DNA of 64,000 bases from Rhynchobatus australiae (lineage: Eukaryota). A model generated the notes under the pieces. It was not told where the DNA came from, did not search any database, and saw only the letters and a program-made list of their open reading frames with translations. The stretch covers positions 8,213,513-8,277,512 of the forward strand of contig JAUZTB010000033.1 in NCBI GenBank assembly GCA_034780895.1, read 5' to 3'. Positions 1,166 to 52,200 of the stretch are shown here, piece by piece. The translations under genes and the position numbers were made by a program. The stretch's first letter is position 1; each line of letters opens with the position of its first letter.

Positions 1166-4100
1166 GTGAGAACTTTATTAAAAACCACATTTACATGTCT
1201 TTGAAAATAATGTCATTCCTCATTATATTTTACAATCGCTGTCTCCATCCACAGGCTTGAATATTACTTCAAAAAAGTAAGTTAGTTACTATTTCCATTT
1301 TAAAAATTTGGAGACAATACTGTGGTTGATGCTAGTCTTATGATACTTGTATAGGAATCTGAGGAGTAAATCTGTTTTGAAACTGTTTTGATGAAAGATT
1401 TGTTTCTGCGTGTAACACTGAGGTGATAAGCAGTTTTGATTTGCAGTATAGATCAATAAACCACAGGTTAATCTATAGAATGAGATTGTTAGTGTACAAA
1501 GAACAAGGAAATTTTGTGTTAAATCTTAAATGCAAGTGACAATGGGTAAATGAAGGAGCAAAATGAATGATTTTAGTCTTTTTATGAATTTGAAATGAAT
1601 CACTGGCATTGCTAACTTGACTTCTGGTGCTGCCACTTCACCCCCCCCCCCCCCCCCCAGGAGTTTGCAATTAGTAAAGTCTTGAAAGTCAAACTTTCAA
1701 ATTTTTTCAGATGCTGGAAATCTGGAAAAAAAAGCAGAAGATATTGGAAACACTCAGCAGGTCAGATAGCATCTGTGGAAAGAAAAAAAGAGTTAACATT
1801 TCAGGTTAAAGATCCTTTATCAGAACTGAGAAATTGAGAAAAACAAGTCAGTTTTAAGTTCCAGAGAAGATGGGAAGGCAAAACATGGCTACGTAAAGGG
1901 AATATCTCGAATACAGTGAGGCCAGACTTGCCAAGGTGATGTTAATGTTTACTCAGCCATCTGATTTGATTAATAGATTAATGAGGGAAGTTGGAGAGAG
2001 TGGTAGAAAACAAAGAGACCTGTTAAAGCTGTGAAATGCAGATGAGAACTGTTACTGGAACCTGAAACTAAAGAGAGGATGCTGGAAATACCCAGCATAT
2101 CAACCTGTAGAGAGAGAAAAACTAAGTTTACCATTACAGGTGGATAACTTTACAATAGAACTGGCCAGTTCTGATACAAAAAGGAAAAAACAAGTTATCT
2201 GAAATTGTTAAATTTGAAATCTCAAAGACTAAAACATGCCCAGGTGGAAGATGAGGTACTGTTCTCCAAACTTGTGTTGGGCCCTGTTGGAAGAGTACAG
2301 ATGACCACTGAGAGTTAGATCAGAGTGGGAGAGAGAAGTAGCTACGAGCAAGTGGAAAATCAGGAACTAGGGATGCTCCCGTGGACTGAATAATTCAAAG
2401 CTCTCAAACTTATTAATTTAGTAAATCTACCTTGTCTTTGCCTCTCATAATTTTACATACTTCTGTCAGGTTGCCCTTCAGCTTCCGATGCCCCAGAGAA
2501 ACAATCTAAGTTTGTCCAACCTCTTTGTAACTAATCCAGACAACATCCTGGTGAATCTCTTCTGCACCCTCTCCAGAGTTTCCACATTCTTCCTGCAATG
2601 TGGCCACCAGAACTGCACACACTACTCCAAATGTGGCCTAACCAAAGTTTTATACAGCTGCAAAATTACTTTGACTTCTATGCTCAACACCCTGACCGAT
2701 AAAGGCAAACCTTCGTTACCACCTATCTACTTGTGTTGTTACTTTCAGGGAGCTTTTGATTTGCATCCCAAGATCCTTCTATACATCATTGATCCTCAGG
2801 GCCTTGCCTCTTACTGTATACTCTTACATTTGACCTCCCAAAGTGCAACACCTCACACCTGTCTGGACTAAACTGCATCTACCGTTTCTCTGCCCACATT
2901 TCTAACTGGTCAATATCCTGCCGATCATTTGACAACCTCTCTCACTGTTCACAACTCCACTAGTTTTTGTGCCATCTGCAAACTTACTCCACTTGGTGCT
3001 TCCACTTCACTCAACTTCACATTACTTCCAGCTTTCTTGTGTTCTTTAAAATGTGGTGTTTGAGTTCATGCTGTTGACATGACGAAAATGGTTACTTATA
3101 CCCCTTAAGCTGTTTTAATAGTTGTATAGTTTATTTAGCATTTTTGTTTCCTGCACATTCTTTGCCTTAGTCCAAATCCAGCTTCATTTCTTGTAAATAA
3201 TTATAGAACAAGATCAAGAAACGAAACCCACATTCCTTTTTTCAGGCACAGTCATTTTGCCTTGTAACTTATTATTGTAAAACTGCTGCTTATCTCCTTA
3301 AGGGAGACCAAAAAATCCTGTTTTCCTCTTGAAGTTGCATCTGATGAAAGGTCATCAACCGAACTCATTAACTCTGTCTTCACAGATGCTTTATGACCCT
3401 CTGGGTATTTTTAGAATTTTTTTATGTTTGTGTTTCTTTTGCTCTAAAATTTATCTGTTTTGTTCTGTAGACTGCACTGGAGAATTTTCCTGAGCTAACA
3501 GTAGGTGTCCCAGGAACAAAGGGTGGCAATTCCAACCTGACCAAAATTAAAATGACTGGTAAAAATTACAACAAGAAAACGCTCCAATCATTAAAACAGA
3601 ATAGTAAGAGCTCAAAGGTAAGATCTGCTGCAAACTATCTTTAGTATTTTTTTTCCTCTGAATTGGTTGTTATTATGCTCTGTTAAATGTTGAAAACACA
3701 CAAATTTCTAGCACAATGCAGCCTTGATTACTCACTTATAACGAATAGTATTAGCTCATGACCGCAGACATTTTTAACCATTTTGCCAGTATCAATGGAA
3801 AATAAAATAGTTTCTAAGAGACAATTAAGATAGAAAGTTCTGTGTTAAAGATGAATCATTAAAATACCCCCACATAAGTCCCATTCAACTCTTGAGATCT
3901 TCATTGATTGATATAAACAGTATTGTTTTATGCAAAAAGGAACAGTAAAATCCTTTGGGCACTTGTCAGGCAGACACATCAAGAATGCATCCTAATGGAG
4001 AGGTTTGTGAACCACCAAGAAATTTAAGATCTTAGATTTAAGCAAAGGTTTTGTTACAGTACTGCACAGATTAGCTCTCTAGTTCTGGGAGATGGAAGAT

Positions 4101-13560: not shown

Positions 13561-13600
13561 TGAGTCACTTCCTGACACCCCAAAGCCATTCATTATGTGT

Positions 13601-13889: not shown

Positions 13890-13982
13890 GTGTATAGGAG
13901 TGTTAAAATGCTCCCCACGTTCTTGGATGTATGCAGTTCTAACACTCAATACTGCCACCATCCAGGGTTCCTTAATGGTATC

Positions 13983-14059
13983 AATACACACAAAGTGCTG
14001 GAGGAACTCGCTTTTTGTAAATTGCTCCAGATTCCAGCAGCTGCAGAATTTCTTGTGTC
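13983..14059. mobile_element. Short inverted Penelope-like terminal-repeat insertion with 15-bp TSD
   Basis: TTCCTT(A/G)ATGGTATC at 13968-13982 and 14060-14074 flank cacaaagtgctggaggaactc...gctccagattccagcagctgcag. Confidence 0.7.
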
Positions 14060-14554
14060 TTCCTTGATGGTATCCTGCCTGCCACTCTCAATGATCATCC
14101 CCGGCAACACCACCAATTTTTGCTCATCCTTAATGGTCTTGGGGCTGAGGAAGTATGTATCAACCGGGCAGATTAGTGAGTCAGGAGTTACACCTAGATC
14201 AGATTCTATAATGGACAGCAGGTTTTCTTTAAAAGGCGTTGATGAATCCAGCATCTTTACAATATTCAGGTTGGTGAGTAACCCACTTTGCATGACAAGT
14301 TTATGCAATGTCCTAAATTTAATTGCCCCAAATGCCATGCTCTGATGTAAGATGTGAATGTGGTTTTATTTTCCTTTTTTTTCTGATTTATTATGTGCAT
14401 TTGTGCAAACTTGAGCACAATAAAGTTTTTAACACCACATAGTGACATCTGGTGACAGGAAAAAACTTACAAGACATAAATACTGGCTAATGAGATTTGC
14501 ATTTTAAGTGATATCAATATATTCTGCCGAATTCTTTTCATATCTTATTCAAAA

Positions 14555-15279: not shown

Positions 15280-16270
15280 TTTTTTAAATTTTCCGGGGCG
15301 GTCATTGTTTAGTTTCTTTGCAGAGTAGGAAGTGGGCTGCAATTGCACATCGCTCTCAAATGTTATGAATTTGCATTCAGGGAATATAAAGTGTCCGGCG
15401 AGGGGAAATGCCTGCGATCGGAGCTGGGCTCGGCTCGGCTCCGCTGCAAACACCAGGGACTGGAGCCGCCTCGCGCCGACCGGCGCAACGTTCCAATCGC
15501 AACGGGCCGACTTCCGACTCGCATCGGACACCACCATCGCTTCACCGACGGGGGGGGAAGGAAGATAGAGGAGCAGCGCAGTCGCACTTAATAAGCATTA
15601 ATGGGGTAGTGAGTGAAGGATGACAGGGTATATACCTTTAAATATGCCAGTGCATGGCGGGGTTGGGGTGTAAGTTTGACGGGTGTTGTGTTTGGGATGG
15701 GTGTTAGGGTACAGTCCCCCCTCTATCCCGGGCCGGGTGGGGGGCGGGGCCTGTGGCAGATCACGTGGGAGGCGCCGGGTGCCGGGCGACCACACGAGGC
15801 AGGCGGGCGGGCGGAGCCGGGCGGGCCCGCTGCTGGTGGCCCGTCGGTCGGTGGGGTCGGTGGGTGGTGAGGGACGGGGGACCGGATGGGAGCGGCGGCA
15901 CCATGGCGCAGCCGGGCGGTGTGAGAGGTCGGGTGTCGGCCGACAGGCTGCGCTCCTGGTGGGAGGTGCCGGCCATCGCGCACTTCTGCTCCTTGTTCCG
16001 GGCCGCCTTCGCGCTGCCCGACTTCGAGATCGAGGTGAGGCTGCGAGTCGACGCCACCCCCCGGATCCGAGGCCTTGCCGTGCGGGGGAAAGGGGACGGT
16101 CGCGCCGGGACGGGCCTGGCCGTCTCCTGGAGGGGGGGAAATCCACTCTAACCGAGGCCCCAGGCCCTGTGGTTTATCTGCCCTACGGTGTCGGGTGTGA
16201 TAACCGTGAATCCGTCCCTAGTGTTTCACCCCCTGTCACGCTTTTGAGAGCTTCCTTGATCCAACCTCTG
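15280..16270 (+). promoter_or_regulatory. CpG island / promoter of CECR2-like gene
   Basis: Abrupt GC- and CpG-rich segment in a CpG-poor background; GC box GGGGCGGGGC 15741-15750, E-box CACGTG 15762-15767, strong Kozak gcggcaccATGG at 15903. Confidence 0.85.
15903..16034 (+). CDS. CECR2: CECR2-like exon 1
   Basis: [44 protein letters not shown]|gtgagg; 132 nt. Confidence 0.95.
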
Positions 16271-19200
16271 CGGTTGCTGCCTTTCATTNNNNNNNNNNNN
16301 NNNNNNNNNNNNNNNNNNAAGGGCGTTTATTGCCCGCTTTCCCCTTGTATTTGCTCTCTGCGGGATGTATGTTGCCCCCTTGCCTTTGGATCTGTTGTTT
16401 CTCCCTCCACTTGGCATCATTTATTGTTTGTAAGGGTGTTTATTGCCTGCCTTCCCCTTAGGTTTGGTCCTTGGAGGATGTTTGTTGCCCCCGCCCCTCC
16501 ATTTGGATCCATTTATTGTGTGTAAGGGTGTTTATTGCCTGCTTTCCCCTTGGATTTGGGCTTGGGGGGGGGGGTGTTTGCTGGCCCCGTGCCCTTGGAT
16601 CTGTTACCCCCACGGGTTAATTTATTGTGGGTAAGGGTGTTTATTGCCTGCTTTCCCGTTGGATTTGGTCTCTGGGGGTGTTCTTGCCTCCTTGCCCAAG
16701 GATCTGTTGTTCCCCCACCCCAGCCACCCTTGGACTTGGGTGTGATTGTTCCTTGTACTGAATTGTTACCCAACTCTCCAGTGGGGGATTTACTCGGGTT
16801 TGTATTAGCGTAGTTGAGTTGGTTGTTGTGAAATCCGAATCTTTTCCTTGGAATAACGTAGGTGGGCCAAATCATGTTTGGATTTTTGTTTGATTGTCAG
16901 GGTTAAGTGAGCTGCAATTAGGATAGGGTTTAGGAATGTTTTAAATTTTCTTTTTATTTAAAGAAAAGGAAACACTTGTTAAATTGTGCCAAGTATAGTA
17001 TTATTGTGATGGTTCCTTTGTTGTTTTTTTGTCTGGCTGTTAAGGCTTAGTGACTCATGTCTCTTTAATGTACAGCATTATATTATTTTATTCATTTTGT
17101 AATGTCTTCATGTAGGCGAGCTCTGGAAAGAGTGAAAACTTGCCTTGAGTCTAAGCCAATGATGCAGTAATGTTTCCTTTTAAGCAAGGTGTTGCTTACG
17201 GAAAATTGTGTTTGCAAATTATTGTTTCGTGAGAATTGATCTAGCACTTAATGAATTTCTGAAATTTAAGGGAAAAGTTTGTTAAATCAAAAACTGGAAA
17301 TACTTGAGAGAATACATCTGAGGGTGCTGTGAAAAGCATGAAGTGCTTTGGATTTCTTGATGGTTTAATATGTTCAGTTGGATTTTATAGCATAATGTTA
17401 CAGTATGCACTGAGTGACTTTTGTTCCAACACTGTAAATTATTTCCTTGTGCTGTTTTTGACAGTGTCACCAACCACATTCCTCGTCATCTGGTGAATTT
17501 GACTAGTTATTTTTAAAACAAGACTTGCATGTGTAAAGGGCATTTCACAGTCATGGGTATAAAAGGCTGTTACAACTAATGGAATACTTTTTGAAGCATC
17601 GTCAATGCCCAAGGAATTTAGTAGTAAATCTGCGCAAACAGGATTTTGACGCTGTAAACTTAACTCTTTGTCGAGGAAGCAGCCTCAATATTGCCCATTT
17701 GAACACTGTAAGATTGAGACACAAGAGAGACAGCAGATGCTGGAAATTTAGAGCAACACACAAAGGACCTGGAGGAACTCAGTGAATCAGGCAGCATCTG
17801 TGGAGGGAAAGGGATGGTCAACGGTTTGGGTTGTAACATTTCGGGTTGTGACTCTTCATCAGGACGGTACAGGAAGCGGGGAGATGGCCAATATAAAAAA
17901 AGGGGTGGAGCAAGAGCTGGCAGGTAGGGGTGGGTGATAGGGAGGAGGGAGAGTGGGAATGAAGTGAAAAGCTGAGAGTTGATGGGTAGAAGTAACAAAG
18001 GGCTGACGAAGATGGAATCTGATAGGAGAGAACAGTGGACCATGGAATAAAGGGTGGAATGTGGAAACTGGTGGAGGAATGTGTGGGTGATGGGCAGATT
18101 GAGAGGGGAAAGAGGGTGATGGCTGGTGGGATAAGAAAAAAAGGGGGACAGAAGGTAGTGGTTACATTGTAAGTGGGTGCTGTGATACTCCCTCAACACC
18201 ACCATGATTTTGTGATGTAATATCTTGAACCCACAACCTTCTGACTTGGTGGCGAGTACTATATACCACTGAGTCACAAGGTTCACTTCTTCCACCACAC
18301 TTCCACTTCCCTGCCTGAAGTAAGCAAACTTCTTAACCATGACTTTCATTGCTGATTCACTCGCTGACTCATTTCTTTACTTGTAGTTTTTTGTGAATTT
18401 TAAGAGAAATCTTCATGAAATTCTTTAAGAACTGTTTCCCTTTTGAATTTTTAATTGAAAGAGCAAGTTTTTTGTTTTAACCAGTCAACAATTTGCACAA
18501 TGATGCATTTACATTGGCTCCTTTGATCATAATGGCACATATGGCCACTGTGCACCTTAATCTCTGGAATGGGATTAAAATGTAACACTGAACAAATGAA
18601 ATTTGCTACTCTCGTCCTATATGAATTATTGATAGTAAATGTGTGTGTTGCCATTCAGTGGAGATTGTCTTGAGACAAAAGCAAAATACTGCTGATGTTT
18701 AGAATTTGAATAAGAAGGGAAAATGCTTGAAGTACTTGGATGTGTAGCAGCTGTGTAGAGAGATGCAGAATTAACACAAGTACATTTGAAATGTTGCCTG
18801 TTGGATTTTAAAAGATGTGTTGATTTTAAAAGAACTTTTTTTTTCTGGTGAAATGGCTGGCACTGTTCTCTGGTTTTGGCTTAAGGTACACACTGGGCAG
18901 GATTTGTAGTGAATTGTTGACATTTCCAGTTCTTTGGCGGTTTCTTGTGAATACTCTGGACTCGCGTGTTGAAATAAAACTGCTGCACGTGCAGAGAATC
19001 CTTCCAGAATAGCCCTGGTTAAATGAGCTTTGATTTATTTGAATGAGGAGGAAATATAATGGGGAAAGGGGTGTTGTTAGTTTACTTGGTTTTCTGACTT
19101 TTTTTATAGCTTTTATGTGATTGTCAAATATTTCGCTGGTGGGAGTTCTTCTGCCTCCTGATCTGAGGGCATTTGCTGCGCAAGGCCCAGCCCAGTGGTT

Positions 19201-34200: not shown

Positions 34201-37200
34201 ACTTGGTGTTCCGTTTTGGTTGCCCTGCTATAGGAAAGATGTTATTAGACCGAAAGGAGTGCAGAAAAGATTTAAAAGGATGTTGCCAGGACGTGAAGGA
34301 CTGAGTTATAGGGAGGTTGCACAGACGAGGGCTTTATTCTTTTGAGCACAGAAGACTGAGAGCTGACCTTAGAGGTGTGTATAATCATGGGGGGCATAGA
34401 TGAGGTGAATGCATACAGTCTTTATCCCAGGGTTGGGGAATCGAGCTAGAACGCATAGGCTTAATGTGAATGGGGAAAAAGTTAATAGAAACTTGAAGGG
34501 CAACTTCTTTACACAAAGTGTGATGTATATGTGGAATGAGGTGCTAGAGGAAGTGGTTGAGGCAGGTACAATAACAACATTTTTTTAAAAATAGCAGTTG
34601 GATAGGTACACGGATAGGAAGGATTTAGAAGGTTATGGGCCAAATGCTGGCAAATGGGACTAGCTTGGATGGGCATCTCAGTTGGTGTGCACCAGTTGGG
34701 CCTGTTTTGACTCTTAACTCTTTCAAGCTTGTCTCTCAATTAGTGGTCTAGAGCTCTAGCTGCTTGTCCACTATTGCAATCTCTATGCTACCATCTCCCA
34801 TCACTTTGGGAGTGATATGGAATGTGAATAGTTCCTAATCATGGATTTTTTATAACAACGAAGGATGTCATTTGGCCCATTTTTTCCGCACTGGTTCTTT
34901 GTATAGCATTCCAGTCAGACCCATTTCTTGCTCTCATCCCATAGTCTTTCAAAAATGTTGTCCTTTATATATTTATCCAATTCCCTTTTGAAAACCACAA
35001 TTGAATCCACTTTCAAACTGTGCATTTCAGGGCATAATTGCTTGTTGAAGTATCATCCTTCACATCATCCTGCATCTTTTGCCAATCTCTTCAAATCTGT
35101 ATCCTCTACTCATTGCCTGCAATGGGCAGTTTTTCTCAGCTTATCCAACCTAAACCCATATTTTATACACCACCTATCAAGTCTCTTTTCGACCTTCTCG
35201 AGCAGAACAACATATGATTCTCGTGTGTGTGTGTGTATGTATAATGCAAATCCCTCATCCATGGAACTATTCCAGTGAACTGTCTTTGCGCACATTTGTA
35301 CTTTTTTAATTCTTTAGACAGTGTTCACAGTAANNNNNNNNNNNNNNNNNNNNNNNNNNNNNNNNNNNNNNNNNNNNNNNNNNNNNNNNNNNNNNNNNNN
35401 NNNNNNNNNNNNNNNNNNNNNNNNNNNNNNNNNNNNNNNNNNNNNNNNNNNNNNNNNNNNNNNNNNNNNNNNNNNNNNNNNNNNNNNNNNNNNNNNNNNN
35501 NNNNNNNNNNNNNNNNNNNNNNNNNNNNNNNNNNNNNNNNNNNNNNNNNNNNNNNNNNNNNNNNNNNNNNNNNNNNNNNNNNNNNNNNNNNNNNNNNNNN
35601 NNNNNNNNNNNNNNNNNNNNNNNNNNNNNNNNNNNNNNNNNNNNNNNNNNNNNNNNNNNNNNNNNNNNNNNNNNNNNNNNNNNNNNNNNNNNNNCTTTGC
35701 TGGTTGATAACTGGGACTTCTTGGAGGACTTTGTTTCTAAACTTCTTCGGGTATGTTACCAACGCAAAGATATTATGTTAGTTGTACAGCCAATTCTCAG
35801 CAACATTCACTGTTGTATGTACATTTAAATTTGTTCATATTGCATTTCAAGTTAGGATAATTGAGATTATTCTGTTTGTTAGGTAGAGTTTAAGATGTCA
35901 TACTTGCAAGGTGTCCCTCTCTGCCTATGTGCAGTTAGCAACCTCTTTTTCTGAGATGTTGATGGTCAGGCAGACAGGATTAAGTAAATGTTGGTTTTGT
36001 CAAACTTCAAAGGAACAATAATTTGGAGGTAAGCTACAGTGTGTCGTAACTGACGATGTGGTTAGAAAAGCTTGTTTTTGAATTTTCAAATTCAAGCTTT
36101 TCATCAACTGTCTTCACACACAAAATGGTCGCAGCATAATAGGAGGCTATCAGGTCCATAATATTCTTGCTTGCTCTCTACCAGAGTAGTGCTCTATTCA
36201 ATCCACCAGCCCTTTGTCCATAAGCTTGAAAAATTTACTCCACTATATTTATCAATTCCACACTTGAACTGCCTCTACTACATCTTCAGGTAATTCATTA
36301 CAGATTCTAACCATGTAGTGAAAAAAAAATTTCTATTGCTATTAATTATCTTCCAGTTTGGTTTGCACCTGTGACCTCTAATTCTTGACCCTTCCACCAA
36401 AGTGAACAATCTGCCACTATCAACTCTGTCAAGACCCCTCATTTATCAAATTGTTAATGGAATTCCCCAATTCTATTCGAGTTTGCTTACTGCATTAAAA
36501 GTAAAGCATATCCTTTTTTTTACACCTTACTTTTTAAATACAGCAACTAGTTACAACTCTCCCATTAAAAGGAAATTGAAGAATATGTATGATTATCAGC
36601 GAAAGCTTGTATTTGTATAGTCCTTCAACGTGGCATAATTCCCCAAAGAACTGGGAGCATTATCAAATAAAAGTTGACACTGAGGATATGCTGGGGCGGT
36701 TGACGAAGTGCTTGGTTAGAGATAGATTTAAGAAGCATCTTAGAGGAGAGAGTGGTTGTGGTAGGGAGAAAATTCCAGTTCAGGCCTTCGCAGCTTAGCA
36801 GAGTGATAGATGAACTGTGCCCAATAGGAGATGGACCACAGGCAGAGAACCTCTCTTTTAGAAAGAGTGGGAAAATTGAACTGTTGGGTACAAAGCCGCC
36901 ATAATCATTTCAATGGCAGGTTGAGTTGAGCAGTACTCCTTCAATAAAAGTAGGCAGTCTCACTAGAAGTACTGAGGTTGCCCAAAACTCAAATCTGTAT
37001 TGGCTGTAAGATCAGGGGTCCAGACAGTCCTAGGTGAAGCAACAATTCACTTGTTCCACTTTAGTGTATTGTATTAGGTACTCCCAATGTGGTGGTGTCT
37101 ATATTGGAGAAACCACAAGCAGAGTGGGTGACTACTTTACAGAACACCTCCATTCAGTCAGCATGAGTAACACTCATTTCCCAGTTGCCAATCACTTAAA

Positions 37201-40200
37201 TTCTCCATCCCAGTCCCACTCCGAACTCTTCAAGCTTTAGGAAAGAACACCTCATCTTCCATCTGGGCATGTTGTCATCTTCCTGACTTGATACTGATTT
37301 AGCAGTGTTATATAACAATTCTTTTTCCCCTCTCACTCCACAAGTGTGCTATGTCTTTCTATTTGAATGTTTCCTTTTTTTTCCACTTTTGTCTCCAACT
37401 GCTGTTTTTTAAGGTAATTGTTACCTTGACAATTTTGCTCTGTACTCTTTCACAGATTTTGTTTTCTTCAGCCTCTTGCTCACTGCAATTTAAATCATGA
37501 TGGTTTTCTCTTTTTCCTACTTCTGATGAAGAGTCCTTGACCTGAAATGTTGACTCTGTTTCTCTCTCTGCTGATGCTGTTTGACCTGCTGAGAGTTTCC
37601 AGCATTTGCTGGTTTTGCTTTGGATTTCCAGCGTTGGCCATTTTGCCCATCTTTGGGAGGTGGTAGGAAACTGGTGCACCCAGGGGAAATGTACACAGTC
37701 ACAGGGAGAAAGTACAGGCAGCACCCAAAGTTAGGACTGATCCCGGTCACTGAAGTTGAGACGCAGCTGCTCTACTTGCCGCAACACTGTGCCCCCCCCA
37801 CCCCCCACCTAAATAGGGAATATACTGCTAGCCACAATGTAAGAAGGAACAAGANNNNNNNNNNNNNNNNNNNNNNNNNNNNNNNNNNNNNNNNNNNNNN
37901 NNNNNNNNNNNNNNNNNNNNNNNNNNNNNNNNNNNNNNNNNNNNNNNNNNNNNNTCCTTTGTCACACCCTTGCCAGTCCAAAGACGTGAATGGATATCTC
38001 AGAATGCAGTGTTGCCACTCTTCATCTGGGAGGCATTTTCTCAGATGTGCTGCGTTGTGGGGAGCTGCAGTGGCCATTGCCAGCTCTTGCATCAGCTCCT
38101 ACAAGTAATCTCTTGTCCTTTACTCCACTTCCATGGTCCAGCGCTTTAACCCTCAACTCTGTTGAACTCCTCCTGCACCATCTTTCTGACACAACCCCAC
38201 CCCCATCATCTGTACTTGTTTTCTATTTCTGGTGAAAGGAATAGTTGTGTTAGACAGTTGTACTGTTTAACAGAATAATAACTAATTCTAAACTCTACCA
38301 TTGTGACATAAATGAATTATTGTAAACAAATAATATAATTATGGTAACATGAGATTTTCCTATGAAATCAAAGCGCAGTGCAGAAATTGCCTTATTGTAT
38401 CTGATGTTCACCACCACTTTAAATAAGGTGGTGTCTGTTTTAATATGAATAAATTGATCTTTCTGCTAAATGACTTGTACTATTTTGTGCAAAACTTAAG
38501 CAAATCTTATTAATGCATATTTCCTGTTTCATGGCCAGCTTATTTTGAGACATCTTTAATTTCTGCACTCTGAACCACACGGTGTGGTGTTTGCAAGGTG
38601 GAAAGTGAAAGCAAAATATTTGAAAATGTGTGGAATAGGAAAAATAGCATGCTTCTCCATGTGGTGAGAAACTAGTAAGTCTTGGTGTTCAGGTGATCTT
38701 AGTGTGAAGGTTAACAAAATAGAAAGTAAATATGAAGGTTATAGAAAACAATGAGAAGAATGAATTGTATGTTTATTGGAAAGGGGTTGGATTAAACTGT
38801 TGAGATGACATCTGGAATACTGTGATCAGTTTAGATCTCCTTAAAAAAATATATTTGCCTTTTGAGATATTCACTAGATTAGTTTCGAGAGTTTGTCCAC
38901 TGTGGAGAAATATATGTATATAAAATTGGTCTACACTCCTTAGAGTTTAGAGTAATACAAAATGATTTCATCGAGACCTGCACAATTCTCAGAGGGATTG
39001 TCATAGTAAATACCAAGAGGCAGTTTCCTTTGGCTGGAGATTCTAGGACTAGTGTCCTAATCTCAGGATAAGGTATTGGCTAATTAGAATTGAGTTGAGA
39101 AATTTCTTCGCGCACAATTCAGAGGGCAGGGTTGTTGAATATATTCTAGGCTGATAACAATTATTTTTACATGAAATGAAGGTTATGCTGATCTTGCACC
39201 TCATTCAATCTTGAATGTTGGAACAGATCCTTTTATGTTATAGGTGTCGATTTGTAGTATTGTGTTTCAAGTTTGTTTTCTACCATAAATGAGGAAAATG
39301 AGTTCTAGCTGAAACTGTAGTGAACAGATTGAATATTGTTCCATGCATTGTAACTCCTTTCCTCCCCTCCAATATTGCACTGTGAGAGCTGGAAAAACAA
39401 TTCATCAGTGCAACCCTAGTATATGTTAAGTGACATGTCCTCTTTCTGTTCTTGATATTTCATCTCTCCTCTGGGAGAACAGCTGTTCCACAGAAGTCAG
39501 CTCATTGCCAGCTGCATATTTCTGGCTTAAGCTTGAGTCCAGCTTCTCCTGGTCACCTTCCACATTTAATTCAATTTACTCTAAGACCCAGATAGTTGAG
39601 ACCAACTGGTAATTTATCAGTCCTGAATCATGGTATTAGGTAAACCACCTCCCCTTTGGGGGGGAAAACTAATATTCCATCTGTTATTTTCATGAAATGC
39701 ACCAAGCAAGTAATTTTGAAGTGGCACAAGTACTAACCTGCTGTTCAGTAGGAATTTTCTCATCAGAAAATCCGGCCAGAAGAATTAAAAGCCAATCTTA
39801 AATATACAGCCATTTAATGTGCTCTGGTCCATGTTCTGAAGCTTGCATTGCCTCCGATTATAAATATGAGAAGTTTAACAACATTTAATCAACTCGCTGT
39901 TGTGTTGTTGATCTTTGTACTTTCAGCCTCGGTGCCAAATTAAGCTTTTGTGTTCCTGAACCAAACCCATTCTGGCAAATTTCCATCACTATCTGGGATC
40001 TAATCTTCTTGTTGGTACTTTGCACCATGGTGGGGGGAATGCAGTGATTTTTGTAATAGCCACCATAAGCCATTATTGACATACTTGAAGTTTCCTTGAT
40101 AAGTTCCTGAAACCTACTGTATTGTCGTGCTTGATTGGTAAGATAAGATTTTGAACTTTTGCAGTTAAGTATATTCTAATTTGGAACCTTGAATTGAAAG

Positions 40201-43200
40201 GATTCCAGCCAAGCTCCAAACCATAACTTTTGTAAAACTTGTGAAATATCCCACTGTGCTTTTCAGGGACATTATCAATGGAAATCCAAATGTCTTTTTA
40301 TGCAGCCAGAGAAGACCAAAAAGTAGATTTAAGCATGGAGACTAAAAGGCATGGCAAAAAGTACTGATGAATACTTTGGGACTGTGTTTACCACAGAAGA
40401 AAAAGCTGCCAAGTTACAGTAAAAGAAGAGGCATATAATTCATAATTAGAAAAAGGGAATAAAATATAAGAAATAGAAACAGGAGTGATCTTGCCATTCA
40501 AGCCTACTCTACCATTCATTGAAAGTATGACTGATCTGCCTTGACTCTATTTTTCTTCATTATCCCCATATCTTTCAATTTCCTTAAACAGCATATTTCT
40601 GGATATTTTCATTGAACCCCGTGCTTGAAGAAATATCTCCTCATTTCAGTACTCAGTGGCCTACCTTTTATTCTCAGTGTGACTGCTGGTTCTAGACTTG
40701 GCCAGGGAAATGTCCTCCCTGTGCAACCTATTGATCCCTGTAGGAGTTTTATAAGTTTCCATGGAAAGCTGACTAGACTTGGATAAGTCACCAGCTTTGT
40801 GTGATAGATCCAAGGTTACTGAATGGTGAAAGTTGTAGAGGTCTGGGACGTGTCCTTCTGATTTTATCTAAATACGGAATGGTCTACGTAAGTATGTAAA
40901 TACAGAACAGAAACAGACCCTTTGGCCCATCAAGTCCATGCTGACCATCACCCACTTACACTCATCCCTTTTTTTATTCTCCCCACATTCCCATCAAATT
41001 TCTCCAGGTTCCACACGGGGACAATTTACAGCTTAATTAACCTACTTAGCTGCAGGTCTTTATGTGTGAGGACACCAGAGCACCTGGGGGCAACCCACAC
41101 GGTCACAGAGAGAATGTGCAAACTCCAAATATACAGCACCCCGAGGTCAGGATCGAACCTGGGTCTCTGGCGCTGTAAGGCAGCAGCTCTACTAGCTGCT
41201 CCACTGTACTACCTGAATGGCTTTAGAGGAAAATTGCAAATCTTACATATTTCAAAGATAACCCAGCAACCTTAAGCTCATTAGTTTAACTTCTTTTGTG
41301 GGGAAACTAATAATTCAGGACAAAATGAATACTCATTTGGAAATTGAAGATTAATAAAGGGAAGCAAACATGGGTTTGATAAAGGCAAATCATGTTAAAG
41401 TATCTGAATGCACATTTCATGAAATAGTAGAGAATTGAAGTCATTGCAGTTGTTTGTATTTTCAAAGGTTATTTGATAAAGTGTAATAAAAAACTTGTCA
41501 GCATAATTGAGACCTATGGAATAAAATTGACTTTGGCAGTGTGATTAAGAAATTTGGCTTGGGGCAGAAAAAAGATTAATGGTGAATGGTTGCTTTTTGG
41601 ACTGGAGAAGGATGAAATTTGTTCCCCTGTGTGTGGTGTTGGGACCACAGCATGTATGTAGGACACAATTTCTAAACTTGAAGTGTGGCAAGCCATGAGA
41701 AGGCTAGTGAGAGCAACACAGCAAAGAGCATGCCCTTAGCACCCACTCCACTATTCAATAAGATCATTGCAGATCATCCACTTCAATATCCTGTTCCCAC
41801 CTTCTCAATTGGTCTCTTTAGCATTAAGAAATACATTTTCTAATATATTTAATGATGACTCCTCTGCTTTCCGTGGTAGATAATTTCACAGGTTTGCCAC
41901 CCTCTGGGTGAAGAAATTACTCCTGATCTCTGTTCTAAATAGTATAGTTCCATGTCCTGAGATTGTGACCTCCTGTTCTGACTCCCCAGCTGTTAGGGAT
42001 GTCTTCTCTGCATCTAGTTGTCTACTCCTGTTAGAATTTTGATATCAGAACTTTACAAAATACATGGACTGGTGGGATGATGAAATTTAACACTGGTGCA
42101 GAATTATGTATTTAGCTAGTAAGAGTAAAGGGTGGCAATATAATCTTTACAAATCATTTCTAAAAGAAGCTCTGGGAGCAAAGAGGCAGTGTCCACAAAT
42201 CTTTGAAATTGGCAGGAGATGTTGCGAAAGCTGTTTTAAAAAGGCTTGATGGATCCTGGGCTTTGTAAATAGAGGCTCAAAGTGCAAAAGCAAAGCAGTT
42301 ATATTTAACACTAAAGACACTGGCTTGGAAAGAAAGTCTCAATCTGGGCATTGTGCTTCGGGAAGAATGCAGAAAAGTCAGGGATGATAGATTTCAGTCA
42401 ACCGGAATAGCAGGGAATGCTCTCCTGGGAGCAGCCTAGGTGGGGAAGAGATTGGGCAAGTGTTTGTAATCATCATGAAATTTAAAAAATGTTCTACTGG
42501 AGGATGGGTTGAGAACCACAAGTTTGCTGATGATGGCATAACAATCAAAGGTGATAAGAGAAAAGCTTTTTCATTCAGAGAGTATTCATGATGAGGAATT
42601 CACCCAGAAGATTAGGGAAGCAGTTTCAATCACAACATTCAAAAACTAATCAGATAACTGCATGGGTTTAAAAATAAATGCAGGTCTCTGGGGTAAAGGT
42701 AGAAATGCTCTGGATCACTTTTACTTTAAAAAGTTAACTTAGGCTCAAAGGCCTCCTGTCACTAAGCAACATTAAATATTAAGACAAATGTCCAAAAAAA
42801 TTGTGGGCCTTATTAAAAGAACATAGAAATGAGAAATTTGGGGATGGTTCTAGACTAATGCGTCACTGAAAGTTATCAAGAAAAATCAAAGATTCAAGGA
42901 TGCAGGTCAGAATTTGAGGATTGCAGATCTCTTGGTCAGAGATAACAGGTTGCCTGAAATGGGTGGGACAAGGTCACAGAACATTTAAAATAAAAAATGA
43001 CATTTGCAGGAAAAGACACCGAGAAATGTTGTAATGCAGGAGGAGGCTAATTAGCCTGTGTCGTGCTGACGGAGGACGAACTGCCTTGCTTTAATCCCAG
43101 TTTCCAGCATGAGGTCTGCAGCTGTGCAGTAGATTATGGCTCTTCACATCCACCAAGAGGGTTTCTGCCTCTACCAACCTTTCAGACAGTGAGTTTTGGA

Positions 43201-46200
43201 CCTCAACCACCACCTCAATGAAAAAAAGATTTTCTTCACTTCCCTTCTAATCCTACCAATTACCTTGTATCTATGTGCCCTGATCTTTAACTCTTGGTAA
43301 GGGAAATACTAATCTTGGCCCCTCATAACTTTAGGCACCTCAATTAAATCTCTTCTCGACCTCCCCTATTACAAAGAAAACAACCCTGGCTCATCCAGTC
43401 TTTCTTCACTACTGCAATTTTCCAGTCCTGGCAATGTGTGAAAGTGCAACATCTTTCCTGTAATGTGGTGACTAACTGGACTGGGAGCTATTGTATGTCA
43501 GTGCGGACAATCTGTCTCTACATGGTTTCTTCATTTCCACTCTATCCTATAGAGGAGATGGGGAAAATTAATTTGCACCCAGAGGGTGATAGAAATCTGG
43601 AACTTGCTGTCTGAAAGGTTGGCAGAACCATAACGTATAAGATTACAGATGTCATGCCGGAAACTGGGATTAAACAGGGTAGTTTTTTTCCAAGGGCTAA
43701 GTAGTCTCCTGTATCATAAATTTTTTTATGAATCTGCCTTTATTTGAATGTCCCTTTTCATGGAGCTCAAATTAATATGAACTATTTATTTCGTGGAGGT
43801 GAGTTTCAGGACAGCCAAGACAGTTGACCAGTTTTTCCTGAGGATTGACCATGAATTTCTGTGATGCATGTTAGCGTTGGCAAATGAAAGTTGGAACTTT
43901 ATGAAATGAATAAGGAAGAAAGTACTTTAAAGTATTCTCAGAATTATAATGCACTATCCTGCTGTTGTCTTGATTTAACAATGGTCTCTGCCAGAGACCC
44001 AGGGTTTTGAATGGAGGGAGAGGTTGTTGACCTTAGTTGTGTGATGCAGCTGAATTAATATACAGCTGAGATAACAGATCAGAGAACTAATTCCCTTGAG
44101 CCCTTCCTGTGCAGATGGTAACAGTGCATTTGCCACTTAATCAACATATTCTGGTTTTGGTTCTGAAAGCTTCCTCTTTGTTTCTTAATGTATTTAATGT
44201 TTTGAACCTAAAACTTAAAATATCTCTCCAATTGGCACAAGAAGCATCCACTCTAATGCATCAAAGCCCTGTTGTGGCCTGAGTCCAAGATATTTAATTT
44301 GATGTGNNNNNNNNNNNNNNNNNNNNNNNNNNNNNNNNNNNNNNNNNNNNNNNNNNNNNNNNNNNNNNNNNNNNNNNNNNNNNNNNNNNNNNNNNNNNNN
44401 NNNNNNGAGGACAAGGAGAGATTTTTGAATTAAATCTTGGCATTCAGCTTAAGCAGATAATGGCAGTATTCATTTTAATGATTTTCTTGTAAAACATGAC
44501 TTTTTACATGCAGGTTTCAAGTTCAATTGTATGAAAAGATGTATCACAAAGCTTTTAATAAACTCTATTCTTAGTGCCTTCTAACCTGAGACTATAGAAA
44601 TGATTTAACTCAAAGACGGGTGCATGGGGCATGTTCTTTTGCTGCTGCATTGGAGGTGCTTGATCCATTTTAAGAGTTCTGCCCTTCACTCACCGCTGTT
44701 CTTCTGAAATACATTTCCAGGAGCATCCTGCTAACTTTAGGATACTCAGACCAGGTAGTCCTGGGAAATCCAGGCTGGCAATTAGTTCAATTGCAGTAGG
44801 GAAGGACTTGGAAGCACTTCCAGGTGAAGAATGGTAGAGTGATGCAACTGCAGAAATACTTCCACCCAAGGTTGGCTTTCTGCCGGACCACTGAATACCA
44901 GGTCCACATTGCACAACCATTCAGATAAATGTTCAAAAAATAAAAGGGCTCTGATTTGCACACAATTATGGGCTTCTGATAAAATGTGGCAAATCAAAGC
45001 CAAACATTGGTCAAGTCTTCAGGCAGTTTTGATGCAGGCGATGAAGTTCACGAGTCGAAGGGGATGGCTCTAGCTAAATAATGGCTCAGAGTATTTTCTT
45101 TGAACCCAGGATAGCACTTTTTATTTATCTTTCAAGATCTGGGCTTCACTAGCAAAGTTAGCATTTATTGCCTACCTTAATTGCCCCTGTGCCACCTTGT
45201 TAAATACTACAATTGTTCTGATAAAGGTACTCTCACAATGCTGATGGGTAGGGAGGACCAGGATACAGAACCAAAGATGAAGGACTTGCATTATATTTCC
45301 AACTCAGTGTGTTGTGCAACTTGGAGGGAAACCTGCAAATGGCAACATTCCCAGTACCTACTCCCCGTGTCCTTGTTGCTTGAGGTCATAGATTTGGGAG
45401 GCACTATCAGAGTAGCCTAACCAAGTAACTGCAGAGCATTTTATAGATGGTACACACTTCAGCCTCTTGTGTATTCAAAGTGGAGGGAACAAATGGTTAA
45501 GTTAGTTGATTGGGTACCAGTCAAGTGGGATACTGTGTCTTGATTGGTGTCAAGCTTCTTGAGAGTTGTTGGAGTTGCACTCATTCAGGCAAGTAGAGAA
45601 ACTTTCATCACATCCTTAACTTTTGCCTTGTAAACCACAGAAAGTCTTTGCGACATCAGAAGGTGTGTCAGTTTCCACAGGATACACAGCCTCCAATCTG
45701 CTCTTGTAACCACAGTATTTATGTGGCTTTCTGGTCAATGGTAACCCGAAGCATGTTGATGGTGAGGGATTTGGTGTTGGTTATGCCACGGTAGGTAGTT
45801 AAACCCTCTCTTGTTGGTCACTGCCTGGCACTTTATGACATGAATGTTACCTGCCACTTATCACCCCATGTCTGAATGGTTGCGTAGGTCCTGCTGCATG
45901 CAGGGATGGGAGCTTCATTTGCTGAAGAGCTTCAATTGGAATTGAGCATTGTGCAAACATCAGCAATAGTCACCACTTCTGATCTGATGATGAAGCAGCT
46001 GATGCAGATGGTTCAACCTGCAGCGATGTCCTGGGGTTGATTGATCTCCAACAACCATGACCACTTTCTTTCTGCAACTAAACCAAACTGGTCACTGGGA
46101 AACAAGTTATTGTTAATAAGTGGTGCATGATACTTTCCATTGACTTTGTTTCTGGCATGTATCCTCTATTCCTTCAAATAGCATAATAGTGGCCTGTAGA

Positions 46201-49180
46201 ACTTCAAGCAATATCTTTACAATTTCAGAATTACTTAATTCAAACTACTGCAAAATCTTTTGATACAGCATTTAATATATCCTGCTGTGACCTGAAGCTT
46301 GAATGAGGAGAGCTGGCACTGATGAAGGCACTAGTTCACTTACTGAAATGTCACTCAAAAGTACTTTGTTTATCTTATCAGCATAGAGAATTTCCACATG
46401 TATCTTGAAGACATCATACGACATCGATGGGAACTTGAAGAGGGGAAGGAAAACCCACTGCAGGGAATACACTTTAGGGCTCTTTCTTCCAGGATAATTG
46501 TAGAAATTTTGCACAGACTCTGTGATTACCGTCTGGATGCCACAGATGTATTTGACCTTCTCAAGGTGAGGGTTTTTTCTGAAATGTATTATGGTACAAG
46601 GTATCTAACTAAGCACAATGGCATGCAGCAGCATTGGTCACGTTGTTGAAATGTTGATGTTTCTGTAAATTCAGTGCATAAAGGATTACAGTACCATTTA
46701 CATTGCTTGGTGCTTGTGTACAGCAATTTTTCCAAGCTGCTAACCTTGTGTGGTGTAAGATTTGTTTTTGAATGGCTTCCCAGTCCAGCTCTAAAGTTGG
46801 TTAATACATCTTGCCCATAAGATCTTGCACTTTGTTCTTCTCTGATTTAAGATGCTTTTTCACCTATTTCTTTCAAAGTTACATTAATTATAGTTTTTGT
46901 TAAAACATTGCTGTTAATACAGGAACATCAGAAAAACTGAGATGGGAAAGGACATCTATACTGAATTTCGCTGTTGTATTAATGCTATCCTAAACTGTTT
47001 AAATGTTTCCAAATTCACTATCCTACTTAAAATTATCAAAGATTTAATTCCTTATTATTTTTAAATGAATTTCAAGTTTCTTTTCATTGATTTAATTTGT
47101 ATACAACTGATCATTATAGAGTCAGAGTTCTACAACATGGTAGATTGAATAGGAACCATTTCTATCATGCCTGTCTATATTCATCCCATTTGCTTGCATT
47201 AGTTCCATATCCCTCTATGCCCTGTTCATTCAGGTACCTATAAAGATGCCTCTTAAACGTTTGTAACTGTTCCTGCTTCTGCCAGTCTGGCAGCTCATTC
47301 CAGATACCAACTACTTTTGTATGGGGAAAAATTTACCCTTCAAATCTCCTTTTAAAACTCCTTCCTCTCACCTTAAACCTGTGTGCTCTAGTTTTAGACT
47401 CCCCTGCCATCAGGAACAGACGCTGGTAGATAATCTGAGCCTCTCATAATGGTATATACTTTTTTAATATGTCTCCTTTCGGCCTCCTTCAGTCCAAGGA
47501 AAACAATCCTAGCCAATTCAATTTCCCCTGATGACCCAAGCCCTCCAATCCAGGTAACATCCTTGTGATACTTTTCTGCGCCTTTCCTATAGTGTGGGTG
47601 ACCAGAACGGCACACAATACTCCGTGCAGTCTAGCCAACATTTTGTACAACTGTAACATCCCAACTCTTATACTCAGTTCCTCGGCTGATGAAGGCACGT
47701 ATGCTATATGCCTTCCTCGCTGCCCTGTCTACATGTGTTCCCATTTTCAGGAAACTATGTACTTGTACCCCAAGGTGTCTGTTCAACAACATTCCCCGGG
47801 CCTTGCCATTCACTATGTCCTGGCCTGGTCTCGCTTCCTGAAATGCATCACTTTGCACTTGTCTGAGTTAAATTCCATCTGCTTTTCCCTTGCCTGCTTT
47901 ACCATTTGTTTCATATCCTGTTGTAACCTTAGACAACCTTCACTGGTTCCCCTGGCCTGATTGACATTCTAAGTTTACATTGTCCAAGCCATTTAATATT
48001 AATGAAGTTGCCCTTTTTCCTCCAGGCTGTAAAAGTTAGGCTCCTTTGCTTGTAGAATAATGGAATGGTCCAGCACACAGCCCAATCTGTTCATATCTGT
48101 GCCAGCTCATTGGGAGAACTGTCCAGTATATCCTCTGCTCTTTCTCCACAATGCTGTATATTTAAAAAAAGAAACTGGATTAAGTACTTCAAAGGAAATA
48201 ATTTAGTTATGTTGACGTGTGCATCCATGCTTCACCAACCTCCACTCCCCCATGGCCACCCAACCTCTTCTAGATGCCGTATTCCAAATCAAGACAACTC
48301 ACAGCTTTAAAGGCCTTTGTCTGCCCTAAGGAGGAGTACCCAATGTTCCATGTTCCTGGTGAAGCCTTAATATTAAGTATGGTACTCAAATTGAAGATGG
48401 TAGTAGAACTATGGCCTGAAAAGATGTTTTACAAAACTTGTGTGGTTTCTTTGCACTTGTATCTTGTGCCTCTGTTAATAAAACTAAAGATGCTTTTTCT
48501 TCAAGTTATTTTCACAATGTATCTTGCTCCCTTTGGAGATTTGTGTACAACTCTCTGTCCCTGCATCCTCTTAAACTTTTGATTATTTGCCTCTTTTTCT
48601 TTGTGAAAATGTATCAGTTTACACTCTTGTGATAAATTTTATTGGCTGTGCATCTGTCATCTTCACCAATCTATATGACCTCTTGAAATCTCTTTGTTAC
48701 CTGCAAACTATAAAATTTATGTCCTGTTCTGGTCATCCGAATGCCCGACCTATGCACAGCCATAGATATGAACAAGTTCCCATAATATTATGTTTGAACT
48801 GCAAAAATAGTTTCCCCTCCCTCCACTTTTAGTAATTGTTTCTTATCAGTCTTGTATGTGTTTTGATGCAATTCATTACGACACTGTGGGTACTGTTAGA
48901 ATATCAAGTGATTTTGTTGTATTTTCCGATGAGGACAAAATCGACTTGCAGGCATCTGTAAAAATGGAACCCATTCATTATCTGTGTATCTAAGTTTGTA
49001 TAATTACTGTATTTAAAGAGGAACCACGGTCCTAATCCTGAACTTGGGTATCACANNNNNNNNNNNNNNNNNNNNNNNNNNNNNNNNNNNNNNNNNNNNN
49101 NNNNNNNNNNNNNNNNNNNNNNNNNNNNNNNNNNNNNNNNNNNNNNNNNNNNNNNAACTGTGTGTGTCTCTCTCTCCTGT

Positions 49181-49229
<49 letters not shown>

Positions 49230-52200
49230 GAAAAATAGCCAGTGCAAGGACTTGACCCATCTTTAACTCCCCCACCCTAGGCAATTTGTCTCTGCAGGTT
49301 GTGCTTAATAAATTTCTCCATGTCTTATAACTTTTGTGGGTATTTTACACTTTTAATCAGTTTAATGAGATTTGTAGACTATAGAAAAAAATAAAGGTCT
49401 TTATTGGGAAGAATAGCAAGGTTTTGAATTCAACTCTTTGTATCACGTATATGAATTTTGTTTCAGGGTCTTGAAGCAGATAGCTTAAGAGTAGAGGCTC
49501 TCGGAGAGGACAACACTGGGGCTCGATACTGGTATTTCTATGGCACCAGGCTGTACAAAGAGCTGCCTCCACCAGCACCGCCAAAGGAGGAACCAAAATA
49601 TAAAACATCAAAGAATGATAATAAGTAATTTACATTTTGTATTGTAAATAGTTTAAATTTGTTTAAAAGTAAGGCTGATTTGAATTAGCTGTTAATTGAG
49701 TGAAAATATTCAAGTTGGTCAGTGTGCTATGCTGTTTCTTAATTGATGGATAGGAATGAGAGAGATCGTGGACATTTCAAGTAAATCTTGAATAGGTGCT
49801 GCCCTGGTGATTTTCTTATTGTCCTTTCCCCCCACAGTTATTCTTCTGGAAGCCATGGGTTGATATTACCAATGTTTTTACTTTTTAGAATAAAAACAAA
49901 CATTGGAGGAGGAATAGACTGTTCAAGATGTTCATGGCAGATCCTCTAGCTCAATGTCATATTCCTAGTATCTCCCCTCTCATGTCTTTTGTGTCGAGAT
50001 TGCTTGTGCCTTTGTAACAAGATATTTTCTTAGTATTCCAGATACTAGTTTTCATCTCTGAATTCTACGTCTTAGCTTTCCCAATTTGCTCATTTTAAAA
50101 CAATTGACTTCGTTATTTGCCTGTGTCACAGATCTAATATCTTCAGCCAGCCTTTGAACAAATTATTTAATGCAGCAGCAAACAATCAGCTGGAAGAACT
50201 CAGTGAGTTGAGCAGCATCTGTGATGGCCCGTACAAAAAAAAAGAGGGGGAGCAGTGAGACTCCCCTTTCACCCCCACCCCCATCTGGTTCTGGTTACAT
50301 CTGCCCTTCACCTCTCCCCTAATAATTCCCTTTATCACCTTCCATACTTATCAGATTCTAGCACCAATAGCCTTTGTGTTCCACCTTATCACCCTCCTTG
50401 CTGTCTCCACCTTCAATCCCCTCCCTACACATGACTCCATCTGTCTTTTCTGTCTGTGTGCCTCTATCTGTCACCCAACTGCATCTGCCTCCCAATTCCA
50501 CCCCCTCCCCCTCGTCCATCTGGCTCCATCTGCCTGTCATCCTTCACCCTTCCTTGGTCCGTCAGTCACCTACTGGCCTCTTTCTCACCACTACCTCTCT
50601 CTTCCCTCCCCATTCTTACTCCTGATGCAGGGCTTCCACCCAATACGTTGACAATTCCTTCCCCTTCTCCCACTGACCCCCACCCCCTCAAGCAGCTACT
50701 CTTTGGCCCACTGAGTTCCTTCAGCAGATTGTTTGTTGCTCCAGATTCCAGCATCTGCAGTCTCTAGTGCCTCTTAAATACAGAACTTTGCATTACCTGA
50801 GATGGTTCCAGGAACTAAGTTGAATAGTATATCACCTATTTGGAAATGGTTTTGTGATTTTTGTAAATCTTTCATAATCCTTGAAGATCAGGTGCTGACC
50901 AGAGCCCCCACATCTATACTTTCAGAAAATGTTTGATTCACAGCTCTAGAGCATTAGACAGAGACAGTGGATGAACTGCCCTGCCCATTATCGGTGCAGA
51001 TAGTCATTGTAATTCCCCGTTCTCACTCGTTCCATCTGTGGATCTGAAGACTGCAGTTGAAGTAAAATGGAAGTGGTTAAATGATCAAAGACAAATTATT
51101 TGCTTTGAGATGTGGGCAAGGCCGGTATTTATTGCTCCTTTCCAATTATCATTGAGACAATGATAATGAACCAGCATCTTGGATAGTTGAAGTCATTCTG
51201 GTGCTCATCAGCTTCTTAGTTTTCGAGCAAACAAAAGCAATTTAGGATGATGTGGGATATGGAGGCAAATTTCAAAGTGGGAGATTTTCCCATGCTCCTC
51301 ATGTCTTTGACCGAGGTGGTAGAGGTTTTGGGTGATACTGAGGTGGTCTTGGCAAGTAATTGCGGTGCATTTTGTAGATGCAAACATGGTGTGCTCATGA
51401 TGGAGGGAATGAATGTGGCATGTCCAGGATAAAGTGGGCTGCTTTCCCTGGATGGCTTTGTACACCAAAAGTGACCTTTTGTAATCATTTAACGACTTGA
51501 AGCATGAATGCAGAGTAGTGAGTGTCAACCTCCAATGGGTCACNNNNNNNNNNNNNNNNNNNNNNNNNNNNNNNNNNNNNNNNNNNNNNNNNNNNNNNNN
51601 NNNNNNNNNNNNNNNNNNNNNNNNNNNNNNNNNNNNNNNNNNNNNNNNNNNNNNNNNNNNNNNNNNNNNNNNNNNNNNNNNNNNNNNNNNNNNNNNNNNN
51701 NNNNNNNNNNNNNNNNNNNNNNNNNNNNNNNNNNNNNNNNNNNNNNNNNNNNNNNNNNNNNNNNNNNNNNNNNNNNNNNNNNNNNNNNNNNNNNNNNNNN
51801 NNNNNNNNNNNNNNNNNNNNNNNNNNNNNNNNNNNNNNNNNNNNNNNNNNNNNNNNNNNNNNNNNNNNNNNNNNNNNNNNNNNNNNNNNNNNNNNNNNNN
51901 NNNNNNNNNNNNNNNNNNNNNNNNNNNNNNNNNNNNNNNNNNNNNNNNNNNNNNNNNNNNNNNNNNNNNNNNNNNNNNNNNNNNNNNNNNNNNNNNNNNN
52001 NNNNNNNNNNNNNNNNNNNNNNNNNNNNNNNNNNNNNNNNNNNNNNNNNNNNNNNNNNNNNNNNNNNNNNNNNNNNNNNNNNNNNNNNNNNNNNNNNNNN
52101 NNNNNNNNNNNNNNNNNNNNNNNNNNNNNNNNNNNNNNNNNNNNNNNNNNNNNNNNNNNNNNNGAGGTCACTGCAACAAGTCCTTGATTTGCATTCCTAC

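Follow-up and report, generated by a model that had tools for sequence, protein, structure and literature searches.

The stretch of DNA analysed here (hereafter the window) comprises 64,000 nt of the Rhynchobatus australiae assembly GCA_034780895.1 (contig JAUZTB010000033.1, positions 8,213,513–8,277,512 of the forward strand). It carries coding exons of a CECR2-like bromodomain gene and, both within that gene and upstream of it, copies of a dispersed repeat family in which a first-pass annotation had recognized six hammerhead-ribozyme cores (Table 1). These repeats are read here as 5′-truncated 3′ ends of a Penelope-like element (PLE), a retrotransposon with an open reading frame (ORF), likely of the Neptune clade, whose terminal pseudo-long-terminal repeat (pLTR) carries a predicted minimal hammerhead; the probability of this reading, which takes the copies in the window to be decayed and likely inert, is put at about 0.9.

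Copies in the window were located with nhmmer and then with a second-round profile rebuilt from random genomic copies; genome-wide frequencies come from a random sample of 80 stretches of 10 kb, drawn from the large scaffolds (800,000 bases, of which 663,558 are unmasked), with reversed DNA as control. All six sites named by the first-pass annotation gave nhmmer matches to one repeat family, and the second-round profile returned 12 matches in the window and none in the reversed sample. The sites had been grouped correctly, but both core boxes of a hammerhead are kept at only three of the six: an exact CTGATGA is present at four (3341, 17856–17862, 19949, and 37523), with CTGATAA in the 1.8-kb copy and CTGATGC in the 50.6-kb copy, and GAAA is likewise kept at four (lost at 3.3 and 50.6 kb). 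The 1.8-kb copy has an A in place of hammerhead G8; the copy at 17.7–18.2 kb has mismatches in stem II and a short internal duplication 3′ of GAAA; the best-kept short copy, at 19.9 kb, retains both boxes, but stems I and II each open with a mismatched pair and the stem III pair is mismatched too; and in the hammerhead remnant of the 37.5-kb copy (37518–37562) stem I is down to 2 bp. The earlier remark that most copies lack an ORF holds only in part: three extend into or up to the endonuclease ORF, two of them with GIY-YIG remnants [37013–37228(+), 53% identity, E 4e-19 by tblastn; and 2238–2342(−)] and the third, at 17.7–18.2 kb, aligning to the last ~90 nt of the ORF and the 3′ untranslated region (UTR). 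A second decayed remnant (2050–2162) lies within the 1.8-kb copy, and the ORF piece there could belong to either of the two. The 50.6-kb copy is preceded by ~330 nt of pyrimidine-rich sequence resembling a diverged 3′ UTR.

In long copies across the genome, the hammerhead is preceded by a pyrimidine-rich UTR of ~350 nt, and this in turn by the end of an ORF; among 98 unselected copies, which also served for the subfamily and pairing statistics, a pyrimidine-rich upstream stretch was present in 34, against a background of 5.5%. Natural loci and the computed consensus contain the reverse transcriptase (RT) motifs DKG, MGTRMGP, and YIDD, followed by a linker of the form C-x4-C-xx-C and by a GIY-YIG domain that has an internal CxxC, and by motif reading they encode, in a single ORF, a PLE-type RT followed by a GIY-YIG endonuclease with CCHH. 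First-look protein candidates genome-wide numbered 35,489 for the endonuclease C-terminus, 11,715 for the end of the RT, and 1,208 for the N-terminus, which is the gradient expected from 5′ truncation. A DKG motif, a linker, and a GIY-YIG domain at the C-terminus mark PLEs with a C-terminal endonuclease (EN+) of the Neptune/Nematis type, and a linker of the CX2-5CxxC type is found in Nematis as well (PMC8557442). Neptune is favored because the PLE clades reported from vertebrates are Neptune and Poseidon (bioRxiv 10.64898/2026.07.22.740005), while the motifs are of the Neptune or Nematis type.

The family is abundant, with 179 matches in the 663,558 unmasked bases of the random sample (~270 per Mb; reversed control 0), which extrapolates to ~600,000 matches in the genome when inverted partners are counted separately. 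Insertion ends were read from a set of 114 young copies, chosen by exact tail patterns only from the first listed of 581 and 965 tail-pattern matches (6 duplicates removed), and are given as element positions counted from C3 of CUGAUGA, so that the predicted cut lies at +27/+28. The main 3′ ends of these copies fall mostly at +126 to +130; 29 copies have an adjacent head-to-head inverted partner, and 21 of the 29 partners end at +86 to +90. The two preferred 3′ ends lie 40 nt apart and delimit the tail. A tail of 30–40 nt is a PLE signature (PMC11167929, PMC8557442), and two ends 40 nt apart have been tied to two internal RT starts in an anole element (PMC11167929). Target-site duplications of at least 8 nt flank 7 of 51 plain copies, as opposed to 12 of 2550 control pairs, and the 19.9-kb copy in the window has one of 15 bp. 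The hallmarks of EN+ PLEs, namely 5′ truncation, an adjacent inverted copy, and a 30–40-bp tail, are thus all found in this family.

Computing a consensus from genomic copies gave the same hammerhead as that reconstructed in the first-pass annotation, and a 34-letter pattern of it has 146 exact matches (75 + 71; control 0) in the 2.23-Gb genome. All features listed for minimal hammerheads of PLEs (PMC4209133) are present in the family consensus, which has both boxes of the core, a stem I, a stem II, and the NUH site of a minimal type-I hammerhead. The earlier description of the repeats as pLTR ends of a PLE bearing such a motif is supported; the dimer model that accompanied it is compatible with a stem III of two self-complementary bases. 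Judged from sequence, the pLTR of the parent element carries a predicted minimal type-I hammerhead whose self-cleavage is likewise a prediction. Stems I and II do form in the predicted fold of an intact natural copy (z −1.77). When two copies are folded together they pair by way of the self-complementary region of stem III, as a fully intermolecular form and not as the catalytic one. A strict minimal-hammerhead descriptor found two motifs in the 80 random stretches (reversed control 0) and none in the window, where an Rfam scan gave no hammerhead and one weak, unrelated match, and where the six copies fold no better than shuffles (z −1.14 to +0.82). Across the 98 copies, 68.7% of stem cells pair, compared with 20–38% in slid controls, and two pairs are exchanged between subfamilies (C-G/U-A, 31/30; G-C/G-U/A-U, 38/31/16). 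At least six sequence clusters can be told apart among these copies.

Two of the subfamily clusters (28 of the 98 copies) have C for A at hammerhead position 9, as does the window copy at 50617–50661, which suggests that the core was altered during some period of the element's spread. A C at this position would be expected to impair the core.

Several results weigh against the reading of these repeats as ends of a Neptune-like PLE with a conserved hammerhead. Covariation is no better than in controls, since 249 of 500 shuffles reach 68.7% pairing, with mutual information behaving likewise; covariation at the level of copies is therefore not established. Pfam returned a sub-threshold GIY-YIG match (E 0.079) on one of three fragments, a protein homologue search with one RT–endonuclease fragment passed none of 1570 candidates and yielded no named PLE relative, and the assignment of the parent element to the Neptune clade, although likely, derives from motifs and not from a tree. 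None of 30 N-terminal loci holds a full-length element with an upstream direct pLTR, and the junction between pLTR and ORF start is thus unseen there; two of these loci (L341 and L348) have direct UTR pieces upstream, interrupted by masked DNA. A search of 35 copies for 3′ flanks in common, from which the passage from pLTR to ORF could have been read, found none.

The 5′ ends of the young copies are not spread at random. Thirty-two of the 114 copies are masked upstream and were handled as censored, leaving 82 uncensored 5′ ends, and 35 of these fall within 20 nt (−10 to +9) at the front edge of the hammerhead. Relative to the sequence exposed, this amounts to 35 ends in 932 nt, against 20 in 3139 for +10 to +49 and 9 in 1843 for −100 to −11 (p 9e-13), or a rate per base 5.9 and 7.7 times that of the two zones, respectively; the excess persists (4.7 and 11.7 times) when all masked copies are taken as long. 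Copies simulated under a constant truncation hazard (median end-calling error 1 nt) show no pile-up. At the predicted cut, +28, there is 1 end of 82; cleaved RNA is therefore not a main template, which agrees with the account of the anole PLE (PMC11167929).

One start within the front edge can be placed exactly. The consensus C at −5 is absent in 348 of 2067 exact genomic matches, compared with 2 of 45 long copies (43 keep C), and many copies therefore start exactly at the A at −4. The base before these starts is G in 48, T in 31, and A in 21 of the first 100 of the 348 matches listed, while before starts at position 0, taken as a control, it is G in 32 and A in 68 of the first 100 of 229 listed; G and A are distributed differently at the two starts (Fisher p 2e-6; background G/(G+A) 0.39), in tallies counted by hand and, for the position-0 control, read from the listed letters only. 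The sequence from −6 to 0, which overlaps stem I, fits an initiator consensus. An untemplated G has been associated with reverse transcription of the cap (PMC9341517), and the Penelope element of D. virilis has an internal initiator-type promoter in its pLTR (PMC2377424); the G excess before starts at −4 may mark reverse transcription of capped RNA starting there.

These ends could be produced as follows. The element's own RT and endonuclease would copy uncleaved RNA, primed internally at one of two tail sites, as has been shown in vitro for the anole PLE (PMC11167929). Priming in the downstream pLTR would yield long, randomly truncated copies, whereas priming in the first pLTR would be followed by run-off at the 5′ end of the RNA and would yield solo pieces of ~135 nt. 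The likeliest candidate for that 5′ end, though at less than even odds, is a transcription start at the initiator-like motif overlapping stem I, near −4. Under the model as a whole, transcription of the PLE would begin at the initiator-like A in stem I, and the hammerhead would form the extreme 5′ end of the RNA. The hundreds of thousands of solo hammerhead–tail pieces would be run-offs from RNA that was capped and uncleaved and on which synthesis was primed internally within the first pLTR, and many junctions would retain a G derived from the cap; the model is put forward tentatively, with the odds against it. If true, it would account for the mostly solitary and dispersed occurrence of hammerheads in PLEs, and the ribozyme would act as a switch that decaps the element's RNA and not as a processor of templates. 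Set against it are the choice of the −10 to +9 bin after inspection of the data and the scatter of 5′ ends, which form sub-peaks at −4, 0, and +4 within ~20 nt and do not converge on one base. T or TT often precedes the G at −5 (e.g., L377, L380, L388, and L399), with T there in 12 of 18 fetched cases, and the cap alone does not explain this bias. In 30 fetched loci, the base preceding the non-inverted short copies was by script G in 6, A in 6, and T in 6, in a set that by eye still included four long copies, and the A at the position-0 control may be inflated by inverted junctions.

A serious alternative, itself short of an even chance, keeps the same PLE origin and attributes the pile-up to stalling or template switching of the RT at the hammerhead core or at the start of the C/U-rich UTR. 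It accommodates ends spread over 20 nt in several sub-peaks as well as the inverted partners, 17 of 29 of which stop in the same zone (−7 to +15), and the chemistry of target sites or of junctions could lie behind the T-richness ahead of the G; against it stand a G excess that is found at −4 and absent at 0, and a motif from −6 to 0 that fits an initiator consensus. Alternatively, the front edge might be a 3′ splice site, with the short copies derived from spliced RNA. A pyrimidine tract ending in CAG lies upstream of stem I, a donor-like site is present at about −681, and an intron of D. virilis Penelope ends at helix I (PMC4209133), but in none of 145 distinct hammerhead starts does a GT donor form the junction with element sequence from farther upstream, and the single joined case is an internal deletion, so splicing is an improbable source of the pile-up.

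The short copies might instead be a separate non-autonomous family, either retrozyme-like, as the first-pass annotation had suggested, or similar to short interspersed elements, with a short (possibly circular) RNA of its own that is mobilized by PLE protein. Most copies are indeed short and begin near one place, and for retrozymes, defined as tandem repeats with a hammerhead in each unit, an origin from pLTRs has been proposed and the sole chondrichthyan tested proved to contain them (bioRxiv 10.64898/2026.07.22.740005). In the young subfamily, however, identity to the consensus is 0.930 for short copies (n = 35) and 0.931 for long copies (n = 21); 4 of 118 positions differ at p < 0.05, which is about chance and leaves no diagnostic positions; 30 plain short copies share no common flanks; and the short copies are colinear with pieces of the ORF-bearing element. 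The 179 random matches include 30 head-to-head pairs and 9 direct neighbors within 300 nt, and tandem arrays were found neither in the window nor among these matches, rare arrays elsewhere in the genome being possible. A cleaved template would moreover predict ends at +28, where 1 of 82 lies. A separate family is on these grounds quite unlikely, and the proposal was not sustained; the purely random truncation that the first-pass annotation had named as what would refute it was not found either, the 5′ ends being clustered at the hammerhead front edge. Least probable of all, and very much so, is that sense copies act as ribozymes that cut the pre-mRNA of the CECR2-like gene. Sense copies do lie in introns of that gene, as first reported, at 19.9, 37.5, and 50.6 kb; they are spaced 13–18 kb apart, however, no window copy passes the descriptor or folds as a hammerhead, and across the gene, in the window and the next contig stretches, 4 matches of the family are sense and 6 antisense. 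In published work, cleavage by minimal hammerheads is poor even when they are dimeric (PMC4209133) or needs the PLE protein (PMC11167929). The intronic sense copies are decayed, and cleavage of host pre-mRNA here is therefore unlikely; the window copies are likely inert intronic passengers.

The first coding exon of the CECR2-like gene (15903–16034) is GC-rich and is followed by exons at 35697, 46377, 49458, 52636, and on; the gene, whose closest homologues are from sharks and rays, continues in the downstream contig stretches L118 and L120. The copies at 1.8 and 3.3 kb sit 5′ of this first exon. Lists of homologues suggest two CECR2 paralogues in cartilaginous fishes (~95 and ~73% identity classes to the first exon). 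In a downstream intron of the gene lies another decayed copy of this PLE, a longer one that retains pieces of the RT and the endonuclease [L120:6605–7607(−)], and a degenerate tandem repeat with units of 92–113 nt occupies 16319–16716, just within intron 1. The small PLE tail pair at 14 kb is surrounded by a long inverted repeat of another dispersed repeat (13635–13888/14559–14809), the arms of which are 82–90% complementary in pieces of 30–115 nt. The weak Rfam match is SNORD59-like and antisense to the host gene [27445–27512(−); 28.4 bits, gathering 45; E 0.11] and is probably due to chance. Pieces of other abundant repeats occur at 2531–2900, 23611–23707, 34507–34705, 47358–47960, 56641–56891, and 62845–63404; they look like long interspersed elements of the CR1 type.

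Table 1. Copies of the PLE family and the host gene in the window (positions in nt from the first base of the window).
Positions	Strand	Feature	Relation to host gene
6..64	+	PLE 3′-end tail fragment, clipped by the window edge	
1702..2342	−	Old-subfamily copy: GIY-YIG C-terminal remnant (2238–2342), hammerhead remnant (1784–1828), tail	
3336..3421	+	Short decayed old-subfamily copy; CUGAUGA kept, GAAA box disrupted	
13980–14009 / 14010–14061	− / +	Small head-to-head pair of tail fragments, without hammerhead	
15903..62118	+	CECR2-like bromodomain gene, coding exons (tblastn)	Host gene; runs beyond the window
17715..18243	−	5′-truncated copy: ORF end, pyrimidine-rich 3′ UTR, hammerhead remnant, tail	Antisense, intron 1
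18688..18775	−	Weak tail fragment (E 5e-4)	Antisense
19933..19947	+	15-bp target-site duplication, left copy; last 3 bases overlap the start of the 19945..20076 element	
19945..20076	+	Best-kept short copy; begins at the hammerhead front edge	Sense, intron 1
20077..20091	+	15-bp target-site duplication, right copy (19.9-kb element)	
27157..27225	−	Additional decayed short copy, missing from the first-pass annotation	Antisense
37012..37634	+	Copy with GIY-YIG remnant, 3′ UTR, hammerhead remnant, tail	Sense, intron 2
50171..50230	−	Inverted tail fragment 5′ of the 50.6-kb copy (head-to-head arrangement)	Antisense
50605..50778	+	Copy with an insertion and a tail; core disrupted (CUGAUGC, no GAAA)	Sense, intron

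Minimal hammerheads in PLEs, and the scattering of truncated copies that carry them, were published in 2014 (PMC4209133), and the hammerhead-bearing PLE ends as first described in the window are in this respect ordinary; the pattern of 5′ ends is the less ordinary part. A search from which most subscription journals, Repbase, and Dfam lay outside found no published account of this chondrichthyan family or of a front-edge pile-up, and the family may well be catalogued already in repeat databases. The role of the PLE hammerhead has been stated to be unclear (PMC8557442). In this family, many natural insertion products show templates that were uncut at the predicted site and copying that ends at the front edge of the ribozyme, and the family could thereby bear on the start point of PLE transcripts and on the function of the ribozyme.

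The motif shares with published PLE minimal hammerheads (PMC4209133) the type-I topology without a real helix III, a stem I of 4–5 bp, an extra base between position 9 and stem II, the G10.1-C11.1 pair, self-complementary positions 15.2/16.2, and its occurrence mostly as single dispersed motifs from truncated PLEs; it differs in a stem II of 5 bp in place of 7–8 and in numbers, on the order of 10^5 decayed matches here as against 4,000–9,000 descriptor hits there, and the excerpted parts of that report name no chondrichthyan family. With the EN+ PLEs Neptune and Nematis (PMC8557442) the parent element has in common the DKG RT, the CX2-5CxxC linker, the C-terminal GIY-YIG domain with CCHH, heavy 5′ truncation, an adjacent inverted copy, and a 30–40-bp tail; in contrast to those elements, no full-length or partial-tandem source copy was recovered here, and the microsatellite targeting described for them is not evident in the listed flanks, which were judged by inspection only. 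Poseidon_Ac (PAc) of the green anole (PMC11167929) resembles the present family in that two internal RT starts bound the tail, uncleaved RNA is the template, and no RNA or insertion ends mark the hammerhead cut site. In PAc the linker motif is missing and the ORF begins within the hammerhead, whereas here the frames through hammerhead and tail close early and an ORF start was not found; the consulted parts of the PAc account mention no clustering of 5′ ends at the front edge of the hammerhead. Animal non-LTR retrozymes (bioRxiv 10.64898/2026.07.22.740005; PMC7229834) are similar in their type-I hammerhead, pLTR ancestry, and short pieces without an ORF, but they are built of tandem hammerhead units, whereas the pieces in R. 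australiae are dispersed singles and head-to-head pairs that grade into ORF-bearing copies.

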